Shown in pieces: positions 1-24,340 of a stretch of DNA of 24,340 bases (its first letter is position 1; the number at the start of each line of letters is the position of its first letter). Source of the stretch: Candidatus Saccharimonadales bacterium (GTDB lineage: Bacteria > Patescibacteriota > Saccharimonadia > Saccharimonadales > UBA4665); NCBI GenBank assembly GCA_038199095.1, contig JBBPZG010000108.1, positions 1 through 24,340 on the forward strand, written 5' to 3'. Position numbers and translations under genes: made by a program. Under the pieces are notes generated by a model. That model had not been told where the DNA came from, searched no databases, and saw nothing but the letters and a program-made list of their open reading frames with translations.

Positions 1-14
1 AAGCTAGTTGAAGA

Positions 15-29
15 TGCTTATGCTACAAT
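15..29 (+). promoter_or_regulatory. Extended -10 promoter for pilM (TGCTTATGC-TACAAT)
   Basis: TGc-TACAAT at 21-29, 12 nt before the ATG; the same TGCTTATGCT context occurs at 10171-10185. Confidence 0.55.
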
Positions 30-41
30 TAAGGGCAGATT

Positions 42-1082
42 ATGAGTTCACTTTTTAGCGGCAGCACCGACTTTTTTGGCCTGGATATTGGCAGCACGGC
101 TATCCGTTTAGTTGAGCTACGCGGTAGCGGCAGTTCTAAGGCGCTATCCAAATATGCTTACTTGCCAATCGAAAACAACATAGCCCTCAGCGATGCCAAA
201 GGCGACCAGCAGAAGCTAGCCCAAGCCGTCTCCCAGCTGGTGGGGCAGGCTAAGATCAATACCAAGAATGTAGCCGTTGGTTTGCCGTCAGGCCGCGTTT
301 TCACCACGCTGGCCGATGTTGACCGCTTGCCGGCCAATGAACTGGCCAAATCGATCCCTTACCAGGCCGACTCACTCATCCCGACCCCGCTAGCCGAATC
401 TAAGATCGACTGGGCACTGGTAGGTGACTCGCCAAACGACAAGACCAAGCAGGAAATACTGCTCTCCAGTGTGCCGAACAAGTACGTCGAGGACCGGCTG
501 GACCTGCTGGAATCAATCGGCCTGAACGTCATCGCCTTTGAACCTGATAATCTCGCCATGGCCCGCGCCCTGGCGGTAGCCGACGCCGCGCCGCAGCTGC
601 TACTCGACATCGGCCGGCGCTCGACCGACCTGGTTGTGCTGGTCGACGGCGTGCCGCACCTGACGCGCAGCATCCCGACAGGTGTAGAAACCATGGTCAA
701 GGCCGCCATGCAGAACCTTAATATTGACGAAAAGCAGGCTGAGCAGTTCGTGTTCAAGTTTGGGCTGAGCAAAGAAAAGCTGGAGGGCCAGATCTTCCAG
801 TCTATTATCGGTACGATTGATTTGCTGACCTCCGAAATCGAGAAGTCCATTAAGTTTTTCCAGACGCGGTACGATCCGGCTAAAGTCCAGCGCATTGTTG
901 TTACTGGCGGGGCATCGGTCACGCCTGAATTCCCGTTATACCTTGCCAATAAGTTCGGAGTGAATGTCGAGATCGGCAACGCCTGGCGCAATGTCACGTT
1001 CAGCCGGGACCGTCAGAATGAACTATCAGCGATATCAAACCAGTTCGGCGTCGCTGTCGGCCTGGCGGAGCGGACACCATGA
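42..1082 (+). CDS. pilM: Type IV pilus assembly protein PilM (actin-like ATPase)
   Basis: N-terminal FGLDIGSTAIRLVEL and C-terminal IVVTGGAS actin-fold motifs; first gene of the pilMNO order. Confidence 0.92.
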   Translation: MSSLFSGSTDFFGLDIGSTAIRLVELRGSGSSKALSKYAYLPIENNIALSDAKGDQQKLAQAVSQLVGQAKINTKNVAVGLPSGRVFTTLADVDRLPANELAKSIPYQADSLIPTPLAESKIDWALVGDSPNDKTKQEILLSSVPNKYVEDRLDLLESIGLNVIAFEPDNLAMARALAVADAAPQLLLDIGRRSTDLVVLVDGVPHLTRSIPTGVETMVKAAMQNLNIDEKQAEQFVFKFGLSKEKLEGQIFQSIIGTIDLLTSEIEKSIKFFQTRYDPAKVQRIVVTGGASVTPEFPLYLANKFGVNVEIGNAWRNVTFSRDRQNELSAISNQFGVAVGLAERTP

Positions 1083-1090
1083 GGCGTAAT

Positions 1091-1198
1091 CAACAATCAA
1101 CAATCAACAATAAACAGCACCTAAGCCTGGGGGCCAAGAAGCCAGTCAGTGCATTCGCACACAAAGGCTGTTTATTGTTTATTGCTGATTGTTTATTT
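1091..1198. repeat. 7-bp-periodic imperfect hairpin (CAACAAT x3 ... TTTATTG-type units)
   Basis: CAACAAT tandem at 1091-1111; CAATAAACAGC (1108-1118) is perfectly inverted at GCTGTTTATTG (1167-1177). Confidence 0.8.
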
Positions 1199-1218
1199 GC
1201 AAGAGTGGAGCGCACACT

Positions 1219-1926
1219 ATGATTCAGCTGAATCTGCTGCCTGACGTGAAGCTGGAATACATCAAGGCCCAGCGCCAACGCCGCCTGGTACTGAGTATCT
1301 CGGCCCTGGCCAGCGTGTTTGCCATAGTTTTGCTTGGAGTATTACTGACCATTAGCGGCATCCAGAGAAAACACTTGAGTGACGTCAGCCGCGACATTGC
1401 CTCAGAAAGCAGCCAGCTGCGCGCCAAACCCGACATCAACAAGATCCTGACCGTGCAGAACCACTTAGAGAGTCTAACGGCGCTACATGCCGCCAAACCG
1501 GCCGCCTCCAACCTCTTTGACTACCTGAACCAGGTCACGCCGGCCAAAGTAGGCATTACGTCGTTTAATATTGATTTTACCCAGCAGACCGCTACGATTA
1601 CCGGCACCGCCGACGCCCTAAGTAGTGTGAACAAGTACGTCGACACCCTCAAGTACACCAAATACACTACCGATTCCGGCAGCGACGGGCAGACGGCGTT
1701 CAGCAACGTTGTGCTGACGAGCTTCCAGGTTGACGGCAGCAGTAAAGATGCCGGCCAGTCGGCCTCGTATACGATCACCATAGCCTACGACAAGACCATA
1801 TTTGATATTACCCAAAAGATTAAGCTTGCCGTGCCTAATCTAACGACGACTCGGACGGAATCCGGCCAACCGACAGATCTATTCAGATCTCCGACCAACA
1901 CTCCAAGTAGTAGGAGCAAGCCATGA
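1219..1926 (+). CDS. pilN: PilN-like fimbrial assembly protein
   Basis: MIQLNLLP N-terminus typical of PilN, single TM segment, follows pilM; start moved to ATG 1219 with GGAG at 1207-1210. Confidence 0.82.
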   Translation: MIQLNLLPDVKLEYIKAQRQRRLVLSISALASVFAIVLLGVLLTISGIQRKHLSDVSRDIASESSQLRAKPDINKILTVQNHLESLTALHAAKPAASNLFDYLNQVTPAKVGITSFNIDFTQQTATITGTADALSSVNKYVDTLKYTKYTTDSGSDGQTAFSNVVLTSFQVDGSSKDAGQSASYTITIAYDKTIFDITQKIKLAVPNLTTTRTESGQPTDLFRSPTNTPSSRSKP

Positions 1927-2073
1927 GCAGCAATAGCAACAAGCAGAGAATAGTGAACAACGGACAGGCTTCACTAGCGTATAGCTTGGCTGGCTGCCGG
2001 GTGCTTAGGCACGGGAGCCGTTCAATGCTCTTTGCCCTTTGCTCATTAGACGCCCCGAATGGAGGCAAATAAG

Positions 2074-2751
2074 ATGGCGAATTTGGAAATATCCACCAAG
2101 CGCGTAGCTATCAGCAAGGCTAATGCCCAGATGGTAGCCGTCGTAGCCGTCGCCTCGTTTGTGACAATCTTTTGCCTGGTAGCCGCAAGCGCGGTGTTCA
2201 GCCAGGTGCGCTACCAGGGCAGGGTGTCCACGGCCAAGGAAAAGGCCCACGCCCAACTGCAAAAGAACCTCCAGGCTTTTGACAGTTTGGTAAGCGCCTA
2301 CAAAGACTTTGACTCCAGCTCCACCAACGTCATTAACGGCAAGGCCGATGGCAGCGGTGATAACGACGGCCCTAATTCGAAGATTATCCTGGACGCACTG
2401 CCGAGTACCTATGATTTCCCGGCATTGGCATCGAGCGTCGAAAAGATCCTGGGCGACCGCAATTTAGCGATCAGCAACATCACCGGTACCGATGACCAGC
2501 TCAACCAGCAGTCCAATACCTCCAGCCCGACACCGCAACCTGTTAGTATTCCGTTTTCTTTTACCGTGATTAACGCTAATTACGCATCGGTCAGCCAGAT
2601 TACCACCGCCTTGCAGCAGTCTATCCGCCCGATCCAAGTCGATACCTTGGACATCAGCGGTGGCGGTAACAGTATAGTAATAACGGTCAATGCTCATACG
2701 GACTACCAACCGGCTAAAAGCCTCACCATCACCAAGAAGGTCATCAAATGA
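2074..2751 (+). CDS. pilO: PilO-like assembly protein
   Basis: Single N-terminal TM, coiled segment, LP...DFPAL motif, position after pilN; GGAGG at 2061-2065 favours ATG 2074. Confidence 0.65.
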   Translation: MANLEISTKRVAISKANAQMVAVVAVASFVTIFCLVAASAVFSQVRYQGRVSTAKEKAHAQLQKNLQAFDSLVSAYKDFDSSSTNVINGKADGSGDNDGPNSKIILDALPSTYDFPALASSVEKILGDRNLAISNITGTDDQLNQQSNTSSPTPQPVSIPFSFTVINANYASVSQITTALQQSIRPIQVDTLDISGGGNSIVITVNAHTDYQPAKSLTITKKVIK

Positions 2752-2772
2752 TTTACGCCGTAAATCATTTTA

Positions 2773-2867
2773 AGCCCGTAGCCCGTAGCTATTGGCCCGT
2801 AGCCGCTGCAGTAAAGCTGTACACCGGCGGTGCTCGGCTACGAGCTAATAGCTACGGGCTAACAGCT
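2773..2867. repeat. GCCCGTAG-family hairpin element, copy 1
   Basis: Left arm AGCCCGTAGCCCGTAGCTATTGGCCCGTAGCCG and inverted right arm CGGCTACGAGCTAATAGCTACGGGCT. Confidence 0.85.
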
Positions 2868-2887
2868 AAAATTCCCGGAGGAATTTT

Positions 2888-3139
2888 ATGAAGCGAAAAG
2901 ACATCGCCCTCATCATAGTCATCGTATTTATTAGTGCCATCCTGTCGCTGTTCGTGTCGAAAGCTATTTTTGCGACCCCCAAGAACCGTCACCAGGAAGT
3001 CGAAGTGGTCCAGCCGATTACCGCTGACTTCCCGCAGCCCGATAAGCGCTACTTCAACAGCAGCTCGTTTGACCCGACCAAACTGATTACAATTGGCCAG
3101 AACGCCAACCCTGATCCGTTTAGCGGCAACGCGCAATAG
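2888..3139 (+). CDS. Small membrane-anchored pilus-locus protein (hypothetical)
   Basis: 83 aa with an N-terminal hydrophobic helix, GGAGG upstream, between pilO and pilB. Confidence 0.75.
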   Translation: MKRKDIALIIVIVFISAILSLFVSKAIFATPKNRHQEVEVVQPITADFPQPDKRYFNSSSFDPTKLITIGQNANPDPFSGNAQ

Positions 3140-3186
3140 GAGGCACGTGTGTCCACAAAACAAACAATCCGTAACTTTAAGCTCAT

Positions 3187-3274
3187 AGCCCGTAGCTCCT
3201 GGCCCGTAGCCGCTACAGTAAGTCTGCGCACCTGCGGTGCTCGGCTCCGAACTAGGAGCTACGGGCTACGAGCT
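3187..3274. repeat. GCCCGTAG-family hairpin element, copy 2
   Basis: Arms and loop (GCCGCT(G/A)CAGTAA...CACC.GCGGTGCTCGGCT) are shared with copy 1. Confidence 0.85.
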
Positions 3275-13761: not shown

Positions 13762-14670
13762 TTACTTGCGGTGGAACTTCTCGTGGACGGCGCGCAAGTG
13801 CGGGTCGGTCACATGGGTGTAGATCTGGGTGGTGGCGATGTTGCTGTGGCCGAGCATGGCCTGCACGCTCCTTAGGTCGGCGCCGTTCATCAGTAAGTCA
13901 GTTGCGAAGGAATGCCGTAGCGTGTGTGGGCTGACATGCTTGGTAATACCGGCCAGCAGGGCATAGCGCGCTACGATCCGCTGCACGCTGCGAACGGTCA
14001 GGCGGTGGAAGTTGCCCGATAAGTCGACTTGTTTGGTGCCGCTGTAGCGCACAAACAGGGGCTTGGACGTGTCTTGGCGCTTCTGCAAATAGTGCTCAAC
14101 CCATGTGGCGGCTTCGGCACTGATGAAAATCGGCCGGTCCTTCTGGCCCTTACCGCGCACCATAAACTCCCGGCGCTTGAGGTTAATGTGGTCGCGGTCC
14201 AGCCCGACCAATTCGCTTACCCGCAATCCCGAGCTAAATAGCAGTTCTAGGATGGCCCGGTCGCGCACGCCGCTCAGCGTACTAACATCTGGCTGCTCGA
14301 ATACCCGGGCTAGCTCATCTTCGTTTAGGAACGTAACCTGCTTGCGGCGGGTACGGGCCAGCTCAATCTTATCGGCTGGCAGGGCAGTGATGTCGCGCTT
14401 GGCGCAGTATTTCAGGAAACTGCGCAAGGCAATCAGGTGGTAGTTCTGGGTAGCTTTGCCAAGCTCGTCAGAGGTGTTGGTACCCAGCCGGTTGAGCCAG
14501 AGCCGCCACTTACGGATCAGCTCCACGTCCACATCGCTCACCTCAATATCGCCGGCAAAATCGACCAATCTTGTTAGATAATGGTCATAATTCTGGATAG
14601 TCTTCTGCGAGCGGTTCTGCTCAATCTCCAAATATTCCAAAAAATTTGTCTTGGCCCGTGCAAATAGCAT
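13762..14670 (-). CDS. Xer-family tyrosine recombinase
   Basis: Complete catalytic set: SGLRVSEL (R), GKGQK (K), PHTLRHSFAT (HxxR), LGH, TQIYTH (Y); N-terminal SAM-like domain; start at ATG 14670, with TACAAT 6 nt upstream. Confidence 0.92.
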   Translation of the reverse strand: MLFARAKTNFLEYLEIEQNRSQKTIQNYDHYLTRLVDFAGDIEVSDVDVELIRKWRLWLNRLGTNTSDELGKATQNYHLIALRSFLKYCAKRDITALPADKIELARTRRKQVTFLNEDELARVFEQPDVSTLSGVRDRAILELLFSSGLRVSELVGLDRDHINLKRREFMVRGKGQKDRPIFISAEAATWVEHYLQKRQDTSKPLFVRYSGTKQVDLSGNFHRLTVRSVQRIVARYALLAGITKHVSPHTLRHSFATDLLMNGADLRSVQAMLGHSNIATTQIYTHVTDPHLRAVHEKFHRK

Positions 14671-14700
14671 AAGTACATTGTACGACAACCAACTCAAAAC

Positions 14701-15208
14701 CGTCATCCCGGTCAGCCCTTGAACTTGTTTCAAGGCGCGTGACCGGAGGACCCCACCCACACCTCAGCAAAGACTTTCTCCTCCACGTCATCCCGGCACC
14801 CCGATCAAGTCGGGGCACAGGCTCCAGCCGGGACCCAGTCAACAGCACTGCGCAGCACTCCTCATGTCATCCTGAACTAGTTTCAGGACCCATACGAACA
14901 GGTAGTACGTTAGAGACATCACCCTGTCTTCATCCTCAAACCACACCTCTCTTCTCTCCCATTCTTTTTTGGTGGCAAAAAAGAACCAAAAAAGCCACCG
15001 CCTGGACTACTTAGGACTACTTACTACCGTAAGACGCTCCGCTCGTGTCTACACTAAGCTTCACTGAAGCTTAGTGGGTTCCCCAAGCGGCTACCCACTC
15101 TCATATTGCTTTTATTCACGCGGCTTACTGCTAAACAGCCTGCTGCTGTATATACGGGATCCCGGATCAAGCACCTTGAAGCAAGTTCAAGGGCTGTCCG
15201 GGACGACG
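14701..15208. repeat. Cluster of CGTCAT-headed palindromic repeats
   Basis: 14701-14754 is inverted-homologous to 15155-15208; further copies at 14786-14838 and 14866-14891. Confidence 0.8.
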
Positions 15209-18386: not shown

Positions 18387-18463
18387 GGGCTCGTAGTGAA
18401 GAGGCCTATCACGCCTCCCTGTCACGGAGGAGATCGCCGGTTCGAATCCGGTCGGGCCCGCCA
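18387..18463 (+). tRNA. tRNA-Asp(GTC)
   Basis: Acceptor GGGCTCG/CGGGCCC, anticodon arm CCTCC-CT GTC AC-GGAGG, T arm GCCGG-TTCGAAT-CCGGT, G73 and CCA. Confidence 0.95.
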
Positions 18464-18465
18464 AA

Positions 18466-18494
18466 TTGACTTTGTATACTGTTTATGTTATTGT
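18466..18494 (+). promoter_or_regulatory. Cassette 1 promoter TTGACT-N17-TATTGT (TGn-extended)
   Basis: Begins 2 nt after the tRNA CCA; ATG 18501 lies 6 nt after the -10. Confidence 0.6.
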
Positions 18495-18500
18495 TAATTG

Positions 18501-18716
18501 ATGATTAATCAAGAACGCCCAGACGAACTAATCATATTGCCTGTTGATTTAGGTGATTTACAACAACCTGATTATTCGTCTACAACACCTCTATTAGAAT
18601 TAAAAGAAACCGAGGAAACCGCTGATAAAATAAATCTTCGTGAGGAAATAGTTAAATCTGAATTATCTCCACAAAACGTTATTGAAGCTCTAAAAAAAGC
18701 TTCCGGAAATAGCTAA
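18501..18716 (+). CDS. Cassette 1: small acidic hypothetical protein
   Basis: ORF with a correctly spaced promoter; no recognisable family. Confidence 0.55.
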   Translation: MINQERPDELIILPVDLGDLQQPDYSSTTPLLELKETEETADKINLREEIVKSELSPQNVIEALKKASGNS

Positions 18717-18760
18717 ACTGCGGTCATAATTAAGACATCTGTAACAGCATCTGATTTATT

Positions 18761-18800
18761 AAAATAGTTCCAGACCTCTTCCACTACGGCCCGCCAAGCA
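18761..18800 (+). repeat. Junction R1 (type A)
   Basis: AAAATAGTTCCAGAC-CTCTTCCA-CTACGGCCCGCCAAGCA. Confidence 0.92.
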
Positions 18801-18829
18801 TTGACATTACATACTACTTATGTTAATAT
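18801..18829 (+). promoter_or_regulatory. Cassette 2 promoter TTGACA-N17-TAATAT
   Basis: Consensus -35, TGn-extended -10, ATG 18836 6 nt downstream. Confidence 0.75.
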
Positions 18830-18835
18830 GCTGTT

Positions 18836-19195
18836 ATGACAAATCAAGATCCTTCTTTAGTTAATTCTGGTGAGCAGGCTTATACGGCAGAGCATTTTGT
18901 AGAACAGCTTCAAACACTTAACCCTAATGAACAATCTGATTTTTATAATGATTGGCTTGATAAAACAGTTCCAGGAAGACTCACAGCTAAAACTAGAGAA
19001 GCATCTGCGGCTGCTGCAAGCGGTAATTCTGATCTAGAACAAATACTAGTACTAGAAGCATATGCTGAACTGGAAGAGGCTCGAGATTATGCGCAGCGAG
19101 AAGCTACCAACGAGCTTACATCTCAAGAATTAGCTACAAAAGAAGCATTAGCCAGTATATTTCCAGATAAATGGCCGTTTGTAACAGCAAAATAG
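18836..19195 (+). CDS. Cassette 2: acidic helical hypothetical protein
   Basis: 119 aa; TAG stop lies inside R2. Confidence 0.72.
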   Translation: MTNQDPSLVNSGEQAYTAEHFVEQLQTLNPNEQSDFYNDWLDKTVPGRLTAKTREASAAAASGNSDLEQILVLEAYAELEEARDYAQREATNELTSQELATKEALASIFPDKWPFVTAK

Positions 19196-19229
19196 TTCCA
19201 GACATCCGTGGCTGCGGCCCGCCCCGACA
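19189..19229 (+). repeat. Junction R2 (type A)
   Basis: AAAATAGTTCCAGAC-ATCCGTGG-CTGCGGCCCGCCCCGACA. Confidence 0.9.
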
Positions 19230-19258
19230 TTGACAAAATACTATCTCTGTGATACTAT
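19230..19258 (+). promoter_or_regulatory. Cassette 3 promoter TTGACA-N17-TACTAT
   Basis: Consensus -35, TGn-extended -10, ATG 19265 6 nt downstream. Confidence 0.75.
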
Positions 19259-19264
19259 CTTTTT

Positions 19265-19783
19265 ATGTCTATACAAACAGAAACTGTAAATATTAGACAG
19301 GCCACCGAAGACGATCAACAGTTTATTAATCAAATGTGCTACGAAGCTGGCTTCCCTGACGGGATGGATGATCGACTTACGTTTGAAGCTGCCCAGCAAA
19401 TAGACTGGGTACCGCTCTATCAAGAAGAATGGGGAAAACGCGAAGGCGACTTTGGCCTTATCGCTGAAAAAGACGGAAAACCCCTCGGAGCAGCTTGGTA
19501 CCGTGACTATTCTGCACTAATTACTAATGAGAACACGCCAAAGCACGAATTGAGCATCGCCCTCTTACCGGAAGCCCGGGGTCATAAAATAGGTAGCGAA
19601 CTTATGACAAAACTGCTTGAGGGAGCTTCTGAGCAAGGTATTGAGGATATAAGTCTGGTAGTAAGAGAGTCTAACGCAGTAGCTAAGAACATGTATCAAA
19701 AGATAGGTTTCTTAACCATACATGAGTCTGATGATGGCTATATAACGATGGCCGCATCAACTTCTTCTGCCGACCCAAAATAG
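19265..19783 (+). CDS. Cassette 3: GNAT family N-acetyltransferase
   Basis: IRQATEDD start, LSIALLPEARGHKIGSELM (motif A), SNAVAKNMYQKIGF (motif B); TAG stop inside R3. Confidence 0.9.
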   Translation: MSIQTETVNIRQATEDDQQFINQMCYEAGFPDGMDDRLTFEAAQQIDWVPLYQEEWGKREGDFGLIAEKDGKPLGAAWYRDYSALITNENTPKHELSIALLPEARGHKIGSELMTKLLEGASEQGIEDISLVVRESNAVAKNMYQKIGFLTIHESDDGYITMAASTSSADPK

Positions 19784-19826
19784 TTCCAGCCCTGGAAGGC
19801 TACGGCCCGCCAAGCATAAGCACTTT
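19777..19826 (+). repeat. Junction R3 (type A)
   Basis: AAAATAGTTCCAGCC-CTGGAAGG-CTACGGCCCGCCAAGCATAAGCACTTT. Confidence 0.92.
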
Positions 19827-19850
19827 TATTAAAGTAGTTTTATGTTTATC

Positions 19851-19879
19851 TTGCATAATTATGCAATAAAAGTTATCTT
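19851..19879 (+). promoter_or_regulatory. Cassette 4 promoter TTGCAT-N17-TATCTT with overlapping 16-bp palindrome
   Basis: TTGCATAATTATGCAA at 19851-19866; ATG 19886 6 nt after the -10. Confidence 0.6.
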
Positions 19880-19885
19880 TGAATT

Positions 19886-20281
19886 ATGAGCGACGGTGTA
19901 TCTCCAGAAACTCTTAATACAGATGGTCATCGGCAAAGAGCAGAGGAGTTTGTATTATCTAAACCATTGCTAAGAGGCTTGGGCGAAATAGCCCAAAACC
20001 CGGGTGTCTATCGCCTTACTTGGATGCTTGATGAAGTTGACCAGGTAGTATCGGATCACAGTATTGGCCATCCACCCTTTGCTCGTTGGTGTAATATTGG
20101 CTTTACACATGACCCAATGAAAAGAATTATTGAAGGCTCTATGCTTAAAAGGGTAATGGCAGTAATTGGTACAAAACAAGCAGACGGTGTAGATCTTGAA
20201 CTTGTTTTTACAACTCCAACAGATTGGCAAGGCTACTTAGCAGAATACGATAGACTAGGCGAGTTAGACCAGGCAGCCTAG
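19886..20281 (+). CDS. Cassette 4: hypothetical protein
   Basis: 131 aa; ends in TAG within a TAGTTC remnant. Confidence 0.72.
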   Translation: MSDGVSPETLNTDGHRQRAEEFVLSKPLLRGLGEIAQNPGVYRLTWMLDEVDQVVSDHSIGHPPFARWCNIGFTHDPMKRIIEGSMLKRVMAVIGTKQADGVDLELVFTTPTDWQGYLAEYDRLGELDQAA

Positions 20282-20334
20282 TTCATTTTTGCTCATGGTT
20301 GCAAGTGACGCAAATCTAGCTAAAATAGTTTTTT

Positions 20335-20522
20335 ATGAGTGAAGAATATCCGGACTATATAGTAAGTAGAGACGAGAACATATTGCTGATACAAGAGGTA
20401 TTGATTCCGGAGATGTGGTTATAGGTAGGGAAGAGCTAAGAAACCTAGGTTCAGTTGGTTTTCTTGGATCCAGATGGAATTCTTCTTGGCAACCTAGTGG
20501 CGGCAACCCAGACCTTAACTAG
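20335..20522 (+). pseudogene. Possible frameshifted small cassette gene
   Basis: TTGCAA-N16-TAAAAT promoter, then ATG 20335 opens 29 codons; a second frame from about 20382 stays open to TAG 20522, just before R4. Confidence 0.35.
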
Positions 20523-20535
20523 TACTAACTGATCG

Positions 20536-20580
20536 CTGTTCTAAAATCCGACTCGATGTCCCGCCAAGCATAAGCACTTT
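20536..20580 (+). repeat. Junction R4 (type B)
   Basis: CTGTTCTAAAATCCGACTCGATGTCCCGCCAAGCATAAGCACTTT. Confidence 0.9.
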
Positions 20581-20613
20581 CTGCAAGGAGGTAGCTTTCG
20601 TTTTTGCTCATGC

Positions 20614-20641
20614 TTGCATTTACTTGTTTAAAAGATAAGAT
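20614..20641 (+). promoter_or_regulatory. Cassette 5 promoter TTGCAT-N16-TAAGAT
   Basis: ATG 20648 6 nt after the -10. Confidence 0.55.
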
Positions 20642-20647
20642 AAATCT

Positions 20648-21529
20648 ATGTCAGAACAATCTAGTGGTTTACAAACTGGTGAAATTATTGCCGACGCGAC
20701 ACGTGCTCAGCATGGTGATGATATCGCTGCTCGCATTTCCAAACTAGTTGAATACGGTCCATTACGTATCGTTACTCATGTACCCGATATCCCCGGAGTA
20801 GAATATCGGAAACCTTATCGCCGAGACGCTGATCAGCAAACATTTGCCAGCATAGGTTCTACGGCTTTATCGGTATTGTCCGATGAATCCGGAGTTAAAG
20901 TTGCAGTTCATAGTAAAGATCAAAAAGAGCCTTTTATACTGCTGCCTGAGCAAGTTGAAAATGTGTACGTTGATCATCCTCATAGTTCCGATATGCCACT
21001 CAGAGGTCAAAGTATGATGGCGATAAGTCTTACAAAACGTGATGGAGTATCTGTCCTACGCTGGCCAAATCACGTAATTGAATTCGGTTACCGTGATAGG
21101 ATTGATACAGAAAATCATCCGGATTATCCAGGGATTAGTATTGTAAGAGCCTATAAGGCCGATGATGGTGATATATGGGCCAGCTTAAAAGAGCGTAAGA
21201 TCGCAAGTCTAGAAGACGCAAAACAAGCAGACGATCAACCGAGAACATTTCTTATCACAAAAATAGATGATGAAAACTACGTAGTTACTTCCCGCATTGG
21301 ATACGAAGAAACTACACCAGTAACGGTTCGTCGTCCAAAACATCCAGGTAATGAACCTTTGCTACATATAGAGATGCTAGACATGAATAAAGATACAAGT
21401 GATGAAGAGCTTTTAGAGAATCATCTTAAACGATACCGTAATTTAAGCCAAAGATATCTTGACTCACCAAGACGGTCAATGAAGCCATTTGAGCTAGACA
21501 GCGTTTTCCTCTATATGGTGCATGATTGA
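20648..21529 (+). CDS. Cassette 5: hypothetical protein
   Basis: 293-aa ORF, no recognised family. Confidence 0.8.
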   Translation: MSEQSSGLQTGEIIADATRAQHGDDIAARISKLVEYGPLRIVTHVPDIPGVEYRKPYRRDADQQTFASIGSTALSVLSDESGVKVAVHSKDQKEPFILLPEQVENVYVDHPHSSDMPLRGQSMMAISLTKRDGVSVLRWPNHVIEFGYRDRIDTENHPDYPGISIVRAYKADDGDIWASLKERKIASLEDAKQADDQPRTFLITKIDDENYVVTSRIGYEETTPVTVRRPKHPGNEPLLHIEMLDMNKDTSDEELLENHLKRYRNLSQRYLDSPRRSMKPFELDSVFLYMVHD

Positions 21530-21580
21530 GCAGTGGGCTTATACAGATAGTAATACAAGACTTTCATTTGTACATTGAGT

Positions 21581-21616
21581 AATATAGTTCCAGACTTTTT
21601 CCGATATGGCCCGCCA
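21581..21616 (+). repeat. Junction R5 (type A)
   Basis: AATATAGTTCCAGAC-TTTTTCCG-ATATGGCCCGCCA. Confidence 0.88.
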
Positions 21617-21632
21617 TACAGCTTATGCTTAA

Positions 21633-21641
21633 TGATATACT
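21633..21641 (+). promoter_or_regulatory. Cassette 6 extended -10 TGa-TATACT
   Basis: ATG 21648 6 nt downstream. Confidence 0.55.
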
Positions 21642-21647
21642 TGTTGC

Positions 21648-21914
21648 ATGCCCCAACATTGGCAAGATTTAGTACTTTCAACTTGTATTCTCGGCTTTAA
21701 CCTAGCGTTAATTCCTACGCTCTTAAGTAAAAAACATAATCCACACGCTGGCACGGGGATTACGACGGCTACATTTCAACTAGTAGCATTTACTGTTTAT
21801 ACAAGTCTGCATTTATGGTATTCAGCGGCGATGGGTTTATTAAATGCAATTTTATGGGCAGTCATAGTGGTTCAAGGTCTGTCCACCCAAAAGCGCCCTC
21901 AACGTAAGCGATAG
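21648..21914 (+). CDS. Cassette 6: small ~3-TM membrane protein
   Basis: Three hydrophobic segments; TAG stop inside R6. Confidence 0.75.
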   Translation: MPQHWQDLVLSTCILGFNLALIPTLLSKKHNPHAGTGITTATFQLVAFTVYTSLHLWYSAAMGLLNAILWAVIVVQGLSTQKRPQRKR

Positions 21915-21949
21915 TTCTGAGGTCTGACTCGATGCCCCGCCTTAAGCAT
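21912..21949 (+). repeat. Junction R6 (type B, diverged)
   Basis: TAGTTCTGAGGTCTGACTCGATGCCCCGCCTTAAGCAT; GTTC-N18-CCCGCC. Confidence 0.8.
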
Positions 21950-21990
21950 TGGCTGCTCATACTGTCTACATTGTTCTTATTGAGCTCATC

Positions 21991-22025
21991 AAATAGTTCC
22001 GGATCCCTAACGTTAAGGCTCGCTA
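21991..22025 (+). repeat. Junction R7 (type A, degenerate)
   Basis: AAATAGTTCCGGAT-CCCTAACG-TTAAGGCTCGCTA; GTTC-N19-CTCGCT. Confidence 0.65.
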
Positions 22026-22147
22026 ACGAGTTCTTATAGCATTAACTTTGCAACACTAGGACAACTAGGCCAAGCAGACATTGGTTAACTTATCACACGT
22101 TGGTTTGAGGTAGGCAACATAATTACGCCAGTGGAGATAAGCTTTTT

Positions 22148-22156
22148 TGCTAATAT
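22148..22156 (+). promoter_or_regulatory. Cassette 8 extended -10 TGc-TAATAT
   Basis: ATG 22163 6 nt downstream. Confidence 0.55.
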
Positions 22157-22162
22157 GAAGTC

Positions 22163-23014
22163 ATGCCTAATGCTTTTATTCCGATGCTTGCTGCTTTTGC
22201 GTGTGCTCTCTGTAATGGTACGGCAGCCGTACTACAGAAAATAAGTGCTGATAAAGAGAAGAATGTGACGTCATTGGACGCTCGATTATTATGGCGGCTT
22301 TTTCAAGATATGTCGTATGTCAGTGGCATTGGATTGGATGTTCTTGGCTGGATATTAACCCTATATGCTGTACACTACCTACCACTATTTTTAGTAGAAG
22401 CAATTATCGCAGCTAACATTGTGATTACGGCATTAATTGAGCGACTGTTTAGACACCAAGAAATAAATCGTTGGTCATACTTTGCAATTATCATTATCTT
22501 AGTGGGGCTTATCTTAGTGGCGATCGCCTCATCGGCCGGGAGATCTGAGCCCATAAGTAACGTAGTTAGGTGGATTATAATTTTTTCACCACTCCCCCTA
22601 GGCATTGCTGGTTATATCTTAGCTCGGCTTAAAAGTTATCGATCTACAGTAGGCTTAGCTATTCTCAGCGGTTTAGCATTTGGCGATACTTCAGTAATAG
22701 GTAGGATTTTCAGTGTTTCACATCCACTTTGGCACACTTTCTATAATCCACTTATTTACTCATTACTGGTTAGTGGATCCCTTGGCGTCTTGCTTTTTTC
22801 GACTGCTCTGCAACGTGCACAAGCTACTGTGATGAATGCTACCATGACTGCCAGCCAAATTTTAATTCCAGCAGTGGTCGGTATCGCATTTTTGGGTGAT
22901 AATGCTCGCAATGGTCTCTGGTATTTAGTAGTTCTGGGTTGCTCTCTGTCACTTGGAGGAGTAATTGTGTTAGCTTTTACGAATTATAAAAGTAATGTTC
23001 AGTTGAGAGTTTAA
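22163..23014 (+). CDS. Cassette 8: DMT-superfamily (EamA/NIPA-like) membrane transporter
   Basis: About 9 TM helices in two repeats; N-terminal A..NG.AAVLQK and PLFLVEAI pattern typical of this DMT subgroup. Confidence 0.75.
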   Translation: MPNAFIPMLAAFACALCNGTAAVLQKISADKEKNVTSLDARLLWRLFQDMSYVSGIGLDVLGWILTLYAVHYLPLFLVEAIIAANIVITALIERLFRHQEINRWSYFAIIIILVGLILVAIASSAGRSEPISNVVRWIIIFSPLPLGIAGYILARLKSYRSTVGLAILSGLAFGDTSVIGRIFSVSHPLWHTFYNPLIYSLLVSGSLGVLLFSTALQRAQATVMNATMTASQILIPAVVGIAFLGDNARNGLWYLVVLGCSLSLGGVIVLAFTNYKSNVQLRV

Positions 23015-23269
23015 GCTCAGTCTATCTACAAACTATGCAACGGGCGTTTCGCTCATTAGCTGCTCGTTAATATTTATTGTTAAATACACGTAAATTTTGT
23101 ACTGTCTAGCTAATTGTTATCAGTTTAACTTTAAACAGTCACCTAGTAAACCAGAAGTATAGCCAGGTGGCACTAACTAGTTTCGACAAAAAAGCTTTTG
23201 ACCTACACATCTACTTTCTTCCAAGCAATAGTGATTAGGAAAACACCGCACGCTATAATTATGTAGTAA

Positions 23270-23314
23270 CAGTTCGAAAATCCGACTCTATGTCCCGCCA
23301 AGCATAAGCACTTT
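23270..23314 (+). repeat. Junction R8 (type B)
   Basis: CAGTTCGAAAATCCGACTCTATGTCCCGCCAAGCATAAGCACTTT. Confidence 0.92.
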
Positions 23315-23325
23315 CTTACAATACA

Positions 23326-23649
23326 ATGCGGGTGTACTCTCTTATTATGTCAATGAACAGAGAAGACTTAGGAGCATCACTTGAGAGCTGGCAGCAATCT
23401 GCTAGCCATGACCGCAAGCAATTCCTCGCAAGCTTTGCAATATCTGGTATGGGGCTACTGGTATGTGGTGAGGGTATTGGGACAATCGCAAACGGAGCAT
23501 TAGTGCCGGGTGTAATTGAGATTATTTTAGGTGGGGGTCTGACAACGTTATTCGCTAGAAACGGATTAAATGAAGTCGAAAGCTATGCAGAAACGGAAAG
23601 AACAGTAGCTTTCAAACAGTATCAATTAGATGAGCTAGATGCCAACTAG
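23326..23649 (+). CDS. Cassette 9: 2-TM hypothetical membrane protein
   Basis: Two Gly-rich hydrophobic helices; start may be 23347 or 23353; stop 4 nt before R9. Confidence 0.7.
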   Translation: MRVYSLIMSMNREDLGASLESWQQSASHDRKQFLASFAISGMGLLVCGEGIGTIANGALVPGVIEIILGGGLTTLFARNGLNEVESYAETERTVAFKQYQLDELDAN

Positions 23650-23653
23650 TTGC

Positions 23654-23703
23654 AAAATAGTTCCAGATATTCAAAGCTACGGCCCGCCAAGCATAAGCAC
23701 TTT
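23654..23703 (+). repeat. Junction R9 (type A)
   Basis: AAAATAGTTCCAGAT-ATTCAAAG-CTACGGCCCGCCAAGCATAAGCACTTT. Confidence 0.92.
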
Positions 23704-23756
23704 AGCAGAGCAAGTGAAATTATTCGAGAACGAAAACAGATAAAAGGAGTAGAGAA

Positions 23757-24065
23757 TTACTCTGTCTCTGGGTCAGATAAATCAATTTCTTCAACGAGTT
23801 GACGTTCAGCACAGCTCTTAAGGATAGCGATGGCCATCTTCATCCCGCCAGCTACAAGATGGGCATCTCTTTCAGGAGTACCGTAACCCTCTAAGATGTC
23901 TTGTGCGGCATCTACAATTCCAGCTAATGCCGTGTAGTCTGAGTCGATGGTACGGTCAATAGCAGTCGCTTCTTCAGGCTCAAATAGAGTAACTGTTATC
24001 ACGTCAGCAAAAGCTTTGCCAACGACATCCTCATCAAGATTTTCTAACTCCTCATGTAAAGTCAT
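23757..24065 (-). CDS. Cassette 10: acidic hypothetical protein, inverted orientation
   Basis: ORF on the minus strand; ATG 24065 is preceded by TTGATA-N16-TATTAT (24101-24074). Confidence 0.7.
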   Translation of the reverse strand: MTLHEELENLDEDVVGKAFADVITVTLFEPEEATAIDRTIDSDYTALAGIVDAAQDILEGYGTPERDAHLVAGGMKMAIAILKSCAERQLVEEIDLSDPETE

Positions 24066-24118
24066 AATTGTATATAATAACAGAGGTCTAATATTTATCA
24101 ACTAACCCTCGTGTGATA

Positions 24119-24150
24119 CTGTTCGAAAATCCGACTCTATAGCCCGCCAA
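24119..24150 (+). repeat. Junction R10 (type B)
   Basis: CTGTTCGAAAATCCGACTCTATAGCCCGCCAA. Confidence 0.9.
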
Positions 24151-24200
24151 GAGACTATACTCTTAAATCATAAAGTAAATTGTATTTTATAGGGTATTTA

Positions 24201-24334
24201 CCCGAATCACGAAACTCTACCCCAACGCATCGTCATCTCGAGCTAAGCCGAGAGATCTCGTTACCTCTGATGATATACTACGAGACTCCTCGGCTTCGCT
24301 CGGAATGACAGTGGTGGGAGTTTCGTGATTCGGG
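24201..24334. repeat. CGTC-type REP doublet inside a 17-bp perfect inverted repeat
   Basis: CCCGAATCACGAAACTC (24201-24217) / GAGTTTCGTGATTCGGG (24318-24334); inner CGTCATCTCGAGCTAAGCCGAGAGATCTC and inverted GAGACTCCTCGGCTTCGCTCGGAATGAC. Confidence 0.82.
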
Positions 24335-24340
24335 TCCCAC

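Follow-up and report, generated by a model that had tools for sequence, protein, structure and literature searches.

The stretch analysed here (the window, 24,340 nt) is the complete contig C108 of a 1.0-Mb, 166-contig genome of a Candidatus Saccharimonadales bacterium (GCA_038199095.1). Directly behind its tRNA-Asp(GTC) gene it carries an array of small gene cassettes bounded by ten short junctions (R1 to R10), which fall into two sequence classes, type A and type B. We consider it likely that type B represents a second left-arm class among the sites at cassette ends, in a cassette array anchored on tRNA-Asp. Across related arrays each arm of a junction goes with the cassette on its own side (left arm upstream, right arm downstream), the two halves assort independently, and the breakpoints all fall inside CCCGCCA, the last 7 nt of the tRNA gene.

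Two classes of junction behind tRNA-Asp

The GC content drops from about 54% to 42% directly past tRNA-Asp(GTC) (18387-18463, plus strand; identified by ARAGORN, 61.6 bits as tRNA in Rfam and the sole Rfam match in the window), and the ten junctions were counted between this gene and the contig end. The last 7 nt of the gene (18457-18463) represent the primary site of insertion, from which the array starts. All junctions lie on the plus strand. Type A sites, located by profile, consist of AAAATAGTTCCAGAC, a variable centre and ACGGCCCGCCA; they are intact at R1 (18761-18810, 44 bits), R2 (19189-19238), R3 (19777-19826), R5 (21581-21630) and R9 (23654-23703, 39 bits), and decayed at R7 (21990-22030, 21 bits, with the core GGCTCGCT). 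The type B motif, GTTC[G/T]AAAATCCGACTC[G/T]AT..CCCGCC, is exact at 20538-20565, 23272-23299 and 24121-24148, i.e. three matches against 0.00 expected from 100 shuffles. These correspond to R4 (20536-20580, 40 bits, left arm GTTCTAAAATCCGACTCGATGT, core 20560-20565), R8 (23270-23314, 46 bits, core 23294-23299) and R10 (24119-24160, 43 bits, core 24143-24148).

The first-pass annotation, made from the sequence of the window alone, had listed R6 (21911-21955) as a fourth bearer of the type B motif. The motif stands for the other three junctions, but R6 is only a degenerate copy, in which the 18-nt spacing from GTTC to CCCGCC is kept (21914-21941) with five positions changed, and the type B profile gives 22 bits versus 40-46 for the others. 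The same annotation was right that AAGCATAAGCACTTT serves as right arm to two type A junctions (R3 and R9) and two type B junctions (R4 and R8); its broader statement that both classes share one right half applies to these four junctions only, since R1, R2, R5, R6 and R10 carry other right arms (at R5 the motif in opposite orientation, GCTTATGCTT, and at R10 AAGAGACTATAC). Its suggestion that type B is the class nearer to the tRNA T-arm holds weakly. In global alignments to the last 24 nt of the tRNA, type B has a mean score of 9.05 (20.6 identical nt) and type A one of 6.46 (19.6 identical nt), and type B retains GTTCGAA..TCCG, but type A retains a longer stretch of the acceptor end (GGCCCGCCA versus CCCGCCA in type B).

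The 24-nt type B arm (GTTC-K-R-AAATCCGACTCTATG-N) hardly varies between genera, in about 180 copies on more than 100 Saccharibacteria contigs, and type A sites have conserved ends and a variable centre. A TAG or TAA stands directly before TTC in 60 of the 62 type A sites, and in only 58 of the 127 type B sites. Among 185,579 species genomes, the strict type B pattern was found in 23 stretches, of which 21 are titled Saccharibacteria, Saccharimonadales or Saccharimonas and the remaining 2 only 'Patescibacteria group bacterium' and 'bacterium'; it was also present in 78 metagenome contigs. Profile searches of the type B loci gave 252 junctions in 103 arrays. All junctions are co-oriented in 102 of these arrays, and wherever the tRNA is in view (39 related loci) the array follows tRNA-Asp directly on its 3' side and has the same direction as the tRNA. 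Clear type A sites occur in about 28 and type B sites in about 8 of the 150 genomes of a family sample. Arrays of small cassettes at the 3' end of tRNA-Asp are probably a feature specific to the Saccharibacteria. Type B had no match in IMG/VR, where no virus with these sites was seen, and the lone type A match there was a chance match in high-GC DNA; on this result we rejected a phage or plasmid that carries the sites together with an integrase. A type-B-like match beside a tyrosine recombinase gene in genome G079 lies within a high-GC coding region and was likewise set aside as a chance match.

The two classes are interleaved. Successive junctions in the arrays are BB in 62 cases, AB in 36, BA in 31 and AA in 18, as expected from the product of the marginals, and each right-arm class (GCATAAGC in forward or in reversed orientation, a TTGAC placed immediately, or another sequence) is found at about the same frequency behind type A, type B and the tRNA. 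Left and right halves therefore assort independently, as had been proposed from the window. Type B could also have been the terminal or ancestral flank of the arrays; it closes 27 of 36 arrays, which does not exceed its share of the junctions overall, and this explanation was discarded.

Crossover in the core and exchange of cassettes

As each of the nine cassette proteins of the window is either missing from the collection or a singleton at 90% identity, the linkage between arms and cassettes was tested in other arrays, using all the junction pairs across 103 other Saccharibacteria arrays, from genomes and metagenomes, that are nearly identical on one side only. When the downstream sequence is the same (at least 90% identity after the junction, unrelated sequence before it), the right arm travels with the downstream cassette and the left arm differs in 19 of 19 pairs, tRNA-Asp itself being one of the partners in several of them. 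When the upstream sequence is the same and the downstream one different, the left arm is kept and the right arm differs (3 of 3 pairs, representing one independent event). Each arm is thus linked to its adjacent cassette in 22 of the 22 informative pairs, with no counter-examples, which supports the earlier proposal that a junction is a hybrid between the left arm of the upstream cassette and the right arm of the downstream one.

The position of the crossover can be read from the same comparisons. A 155-nt non-coding cassette follows tRNA-Asp in loci L139 and L091, and at least five type B arms elsewhere (L123, L132, L100, L088 and the L058 group), and in these contexts identity begins at CCCGCC. 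Loci L125 and L081 are identical from CCCGCC rightward and differ in 2 nt before it. On the other side, the L058 group and L091 have 70 nt of the upstream cassette and the type B arm in common and diverge past CCCGCCAA, and two further pairs (L140 with L122, and L053 with L040) have the tRNA in common and diverge directly after CCCGCCA. The breakpoints being bounded to the left by the 2 nt before CCCGCC and to the right by the base after CCCGCCA, we place the crossover inside the 7-bp CCCGCCA, in agreement with its placement near CCCGCC in the first-pass annotation. A two-gene VapBC-like cassette (AbrB-type antitoxin and PIN toxin), located between two type A junctions in another contig of the same genome (C8:357-1100), is found in three contexts, as cassettes of L062 and L090 contain homologues (61% identity). 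The arms upstream of it are of types A, B and B, and downstream it keeps a type A arm or, in L090, a type A remnant; in C8 the homology starts at the -35 box directly after CCCGCCA.

These breakpoints bear on the possibility that the junctions are portable homology only, cassettes being swapped by natural DNA uptake and RecA-type recombination between junctions of about 45 nt. The arms are long and conserved, type B over about 24 nt, and no dedicated recombinase was found, as this explanation would have it. However, the breakpoints cluster in the 7-nt core and are not spread across the 24-30-nt arms (L125 and L081 differ 1-2 nt before CCCGCC), the swaps from tRNA to type B have only CCCGCCAA(G) in common, which is far below the requirement of RecA, and neither the strict co-orientation nor the tie to the tRNA 3' end would be explained. 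We therefore hold portable homology to be improbable as the sole role of the junctions.

It is more improbable still that the junctions are dead attR scars, left by integrase islands that entered tRNA-Asp serially and then decayed, with types A and B as extinct families and nothing moving any more. Islands that integrate serially at tRNA genes and leave partial-tRNA scars are well known, for instance the tycheposons (10.1101/2020.12.28.424599), some of our junctions are indeed decayed (R6, R7 and the type A remnant of L090), and a true 18-nt copy of the tRNA end does occur. Yet the 10 longest cassette open reading frames (ORFs) and two array-distal flanks hold no integrase remnants, and modules that are 97-100% identical are found in different contexts. 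The near invariance of the type B arm over many genera, around cassettes that are unrelated ORFans, together with these modules in new contexts and the differences in cassette content between two samples of one lineage, points to recent exchange and selection on the arms. The weakest alternative, that the junctions act as RNA (tRNA-like 3' tags, processing sites or terminators) and mark borders only secondarily, is very improbable, for although they resemble a tRNA 3' end and lie at gene 3' ends, often with the stop codon, they show no excess folding on either strand (mean z of about 0 over 163 junctions, 36 of type A and 127 of type B), lack a 5' acceptor strand for a minihelix and any Rfam match, are not enriched in terminator-like sites, and have breakpoints in the core that such a role leaves unexplained.

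The comparison of the window with metagenomes, based on assembled contigs and not on raw reads, bears on exchange within the lineage itself. Contigs of a rock metagenome (X2) cover cassettes c2-c7 at 97-100% identity and leave c0-c1 and c8-c9 uncovered; as coverage is low, these gaps are only suggestive of strain variation in cassettes. In X2 the type B arm of R4 has a 5-nt deletion, and the places of the window noted over the three runs X1-X3 are 20549, 18502-19107 and 23350-24157. In the source soil sample (X1), higher-depth contigs of a more abundant relative join junctions with no gene between them (joints 23302>23651 and 23314>19777). Such 'empty' units recur elsewhere, either as type A, about 15 nt and type B, or as the tRNA, 16 nt and type B.

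The 155-nt non-coding cassette closes with an exact 18-nt copy of the tRNA-Asp end, which constitutes a third class of left arm. The view of the first-pass annotation that at least two cassette lineages are involved is for this reason better recast as two or more left-arm classes.

Cassettes, other tRNA genes and candidate recombinases

The ten inter-junction units of the window (18464-24118, plus strand; characterised with the ORF list and Pfam) contain a single ORF in 9 of 10 cases; the interval between R6 and R7, which are 76 nt apart, has no gene. Eight ORFs are on the plus strand: 18498-18716, 18836-19195, 19265-19783 (a GNAT acetyltransferase), 19886-20281, 20648-21529, 21648-21914, 22163-23014 (an EamA-like transporter) and 23326-23649. 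The ninth, 23757-24101, is on the minus strand and precedes R10. Only the GNAT and EamA-like ORFs have a Pfam match, and Pfam found no recombinase among the ORFs of the array. Several junctions supply the stop codon of the gene before them: the TAG of R2 ends ORF 18836-19195, that of R3 ends the GNAT gene, and the TAG within ATAGTTC at R6 ends ORF 21648-21914. The 131-aa protein had no relative in the 150 family genomes. The EamA homologues (at most 62% identity) were examined as possible shared cassettes and rejected, being ordinary chromosomal genes with no junctions nearby.

Across the arrays, 147 cassettes have a median length of 604 nt (range 9-3261), and among the 134 that bear an ORF it lies on the array strand in 117; where the gene is on the reverse strand (17 cases), it stands before a type B site in 14. 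The 10 longest of the cassette ORFs comprise a phosphoenolpyruvate (PEP)-utilising, rifampin-phosphotransferase-like enzyme, an Mrr protein, a peptidase A4 and seven proteins with no Pfam family, and Pfam detected no recombinase or integrase among these ten. Nor was a recombinase present in the array-distal flanks of two arrays from complete genomes, which encode a major facilitator superfamily transporter, a VIT-family protein and other genes. In one locus (L040:5921-7855), a cassette codes for a protein of 644 aa that combines PPDK_N and PEP-utiliser domains, as rifampin phosphotransferases and PEP synthases do. Many of the cassettes apparently carry a promoter of their own. A TTGACA-N17-TAATAT promoter-like site follows R1 directly, and a promoter scan placed good sites right after the tRNA, R1 and R2, with a total count not above that of shuffles. 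The 155-nt non-coding cassette (L088:595-750, L132, L139, L091 and L058) is made up of a terminator hairpin, about 90 nt, and the copy of the tRNA-Asp 3' end; it reaches up to four copies per array, can directly follow tRNA-Asp, and had no match in Rfam. It may be a small RNA or a degenerate copy of tRNA-Asp.

Just after R10, the contig is terminated by a hairpin repeat (24200-24340, about 140 nt, -80 kcal/mol) that is present in multiple copies, is not part of the junction system and probably broke the assembly at this point. An identical copy ends contig C15 of the same genome and weaker copies are present on C129, C77, C76 and C96. In three metagenomes the repeat has a depth of 130-390x, compared with 4-12x for the array, and it looks like a widespread palindromic repeat or a miniature inverted-repeat transposable element.

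Similar arrangements were found at other tRNA genes of the same genome. In contig C55 (1-880, minus strand), tRNA-Ser(GGA) is followed by one cassette for an FkbM-like methyltransferase and then by a junction that copies the end of the tRNA-Ser together with 25 nt of the sequence downstream of it, where the contig breaks. The last 9 nt of tRNA-Lys(TTT) are repeated three times downstream of it in contig C49 (3308-5410), and the last 9 nt of tRNA-Gln once downstream in contig C80; the GCTTATGCTT right-arm motif stands directly after both tRNA genes. The left arms of C49 and C80 are neither type A nor type B, and the two contigs may be further arrays with other arm classes. Judging from these sequences the design would be general, the core being whatever end the target tRNA has, as the Ser, Lys and Gln cores match their own tRNA. 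A low-GC island at tRNA-Gln in another genome (L012, G015:C1:312000-324000) starts with a large serine recombinase gene; 3.3 kb downstream there is a type A junction whose core is of the tRNA-Asp type, and units ending in type A therefore also exist outside the tRNA-Asp array.

The finding of sites with no recombinase between them raises the question of which enzyme would act on them. The only complete tyrosine recombinase gene of the genome is an Xer-like one in the window (13762-14760, minus strand; PF00589, E 7e-44), 3.6 kb from the array and separated from it by housekeeping genes; a second tyrosine recombinase match in the genome is truncated. In NCBIfam the Xer-like protein scores 257 bits as XerC, 249 bits as XerD and 135 bits as an integron integrase, for which the cut-off is 265. 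The gene is found 3-9 kb upstream of tRNA-Asp in seven genera, pointing away from the tRNA, and in most of five relatives examined no tyrosine recombinase other than an Xer-like one was found. That it acts on the arrays in trans is a rather doubtful proposition. The array of G079 offers no support for a location at dif: it lies at 787 kb, away from both extremes of the GC skew, which are near 320 kb (maximum) and 880 kb (minimum) on a weakly skewed chromosome in three contigs.

The large serine recombinases are somewhat less doubtful candidates. The genome has three such genes, on contigs C103, C117 and C118, convergent with and 130-200 nt 3' of tRNA-Gln, tRNA-Ser-GCT and tRNA-Pro; C103 and C118 have a common AACAGGGGT motif just after the tRNA. 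In type B, GTTCGAA is exactly 5 bp further from the core than it is in tRNA-Asp, and GTTC is shifted by 6 bp in type A. The zinc-ribbon motif of serine integrases lies 5 bp nearer the centre in attB than in attP (PMC3783163), a spacing that the type B offset matches on the left half-site. The right half-site has no motif that matches the GTTCGAA offset of the left one. Moreover, canonical serine integrases do not recombine attP with attL, a reaction on which serial insertion into a hybrid site would depend. Of the 151 family genomes, 110 encode large serine recombinases, whether an array is present or not, and co-occurrence was therefore discarded as uninformative. Tentatively, we lean towards another enzyme, neither Xer-like nor a large serine recombinase.

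Taken together, a cassette would begin with a right arm, often the GCATAAGC motif or a -35 box, and continue, usually through a promoter of its own, to a single gene and a left arm that is type A, type B or the 18-nt tRNA-end copy. The common CCCGCCA core would join cassettes to the tRNA and to each other, which would make every junction a hybrid. A site-specific recombinase acting in trans would insert circular cassettes at the tRNA-proximal core and could also excise or shuffle them. The left arms might mimic the T-loop and acceptor end because one enzyme would have to bind both the tRNA and the cassette site.

Several points weigh against this model. The arrays have no recombinase linked to them, none was found that would perform the attP x attB integration proposed in the first-pass annotation, and the assembled contigs showed neither circular cassettes nor products of excision. 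The independent swaps behind the 22 informative pairs are few, about 6 to 8. The empty units are not predicted by a simple scheme of one arm per cassette. Right of CCCGCCA conservation is limited to A(A)(G), with no inverted counterpart of the left arms, and the sites are without the two-sided symmetry that is usual for tyrosine and serine recombinases. Finally, the array sample was seeded with the type B motif, which biases the ratios of type A to type B.

Little is known of how the tiny genomes of the Candidate Phyla Radiation gain new genes. The array points to a compact, site-specific route by which dozens of unrelated small genes could be loaded behind one tRNA gene, with a cargo that includes acetyltransferases, transporters, toxin-antitoxin pairs, restriction enzymes, a rifampin-phosphotransferase-like enzyme and many ORFans. 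The 7-bp crossover core and two or three arm classes are concrete substrates for biochemical tests of candidate recombinases, and tRNA-Asp followed by type A and type B sites is a signature with which the flexible gene pool of Saccharibacteria could be mined in metagenomes. One might also speculate that the sites could become landing pads for genetic tools in organisms that are hard to engineer.

Relation to known mobile and cassette systems

We found no description of these arrays in the literature searched, but several known systems resemble them in part. In the pdif modules of Acinetobacter plasmids, a small cargo that includes no recombinase is enclosed by short sites and presumably mobilised by a recombinase of the host. 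Both these modules and the Xer-dependent integrative mobile elements exploiting Xer (IMEX) at dif are akin to our cassettes in this respect; the cassette sites differ in having no dif-like inverted pair of arms of about 11 bp around a 6-8-bp centre and in being all in direct orientation. Staphylococcal cassette chromosome (SCC) elements, at the 3' end of rlmH, also form recombinase-less tandem arrays at a gene 3' end. The systems of large serine recombinases, such as phage attP/attB, have a 5-bp offset of the outer motif that type B parallels on its left half, and in this very genome their genes are close to tRNA 3' ends; they differ by the right arms, which here lack a matching motif.

Tycheposons insert at tRNA 3' ends, newer arrivals pushing older ones outward, with repeats of the tRNA end at their borders (10.1101/2020.12.28.424599). 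Insertion at a tRNA 3' end with tRNA-end repeats at the borders is what we found here as well, and links the arrays to tycheposons and to tRNA islands in general. In contrast, tycheposons measure several kb, with their own integrase and often replication genes, while the units described here are of about 600 nt and consist of cargo only, no element-encoded integrase being found in the window array, the 10 largest cassette ORFs or the two array-distal flanks. The att sites of tycheposons are true partial tRNAs of about 40 nt, whereas here the identity with the tRNA is limited to 7-9 nt and the arms are non-tRNA sequences, 5-6 nt longer than the tRNA end.

The arrays share with integrons a fixed primary site followed by co-oriented, mostly single-gene cassettes of about 0.6 kb that are largely ORFans. 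As in integrons, the cassettes have no recombinase of their own and each ends in a recombination site, with hybrid junctions whose crossover falls in a short conserved core. The differences are as clear: (i) there is no IntI-type integrase beside the array, the only complete tyrosine recombinase being Xer-like and 3.6 kb away; (ii) the sites are not attC sites, as they are about 45 nt long, unfolded, and lack the R''/L''-L'/R' palindrome and the GTTRRRY core, the junction motif being GTTC[C/G/T]; (iii) the primary site is the 3' end of a tRNA gene; and (iv) many cassettes apparently bring a promoter. The evidence is evenly balanced on whether Saccharibacteria possess an integron-like gene-capture platform of their own, in which promoter-bearing single-gene cassettes would be inserted, shuffled and excised at sites that mimic tRNA ends, with at least three arm classes, at tRNA-Asp, -Ser, -Lys and -Gln, served in trans by a recombinase unrelated to IntI. 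If they do, such a platform could be a main source of strain-level gene variation in the phylum, and the strategy of the cassette array would have been invented independently in ultra-small epibionts with genomes of about 1 Mb.

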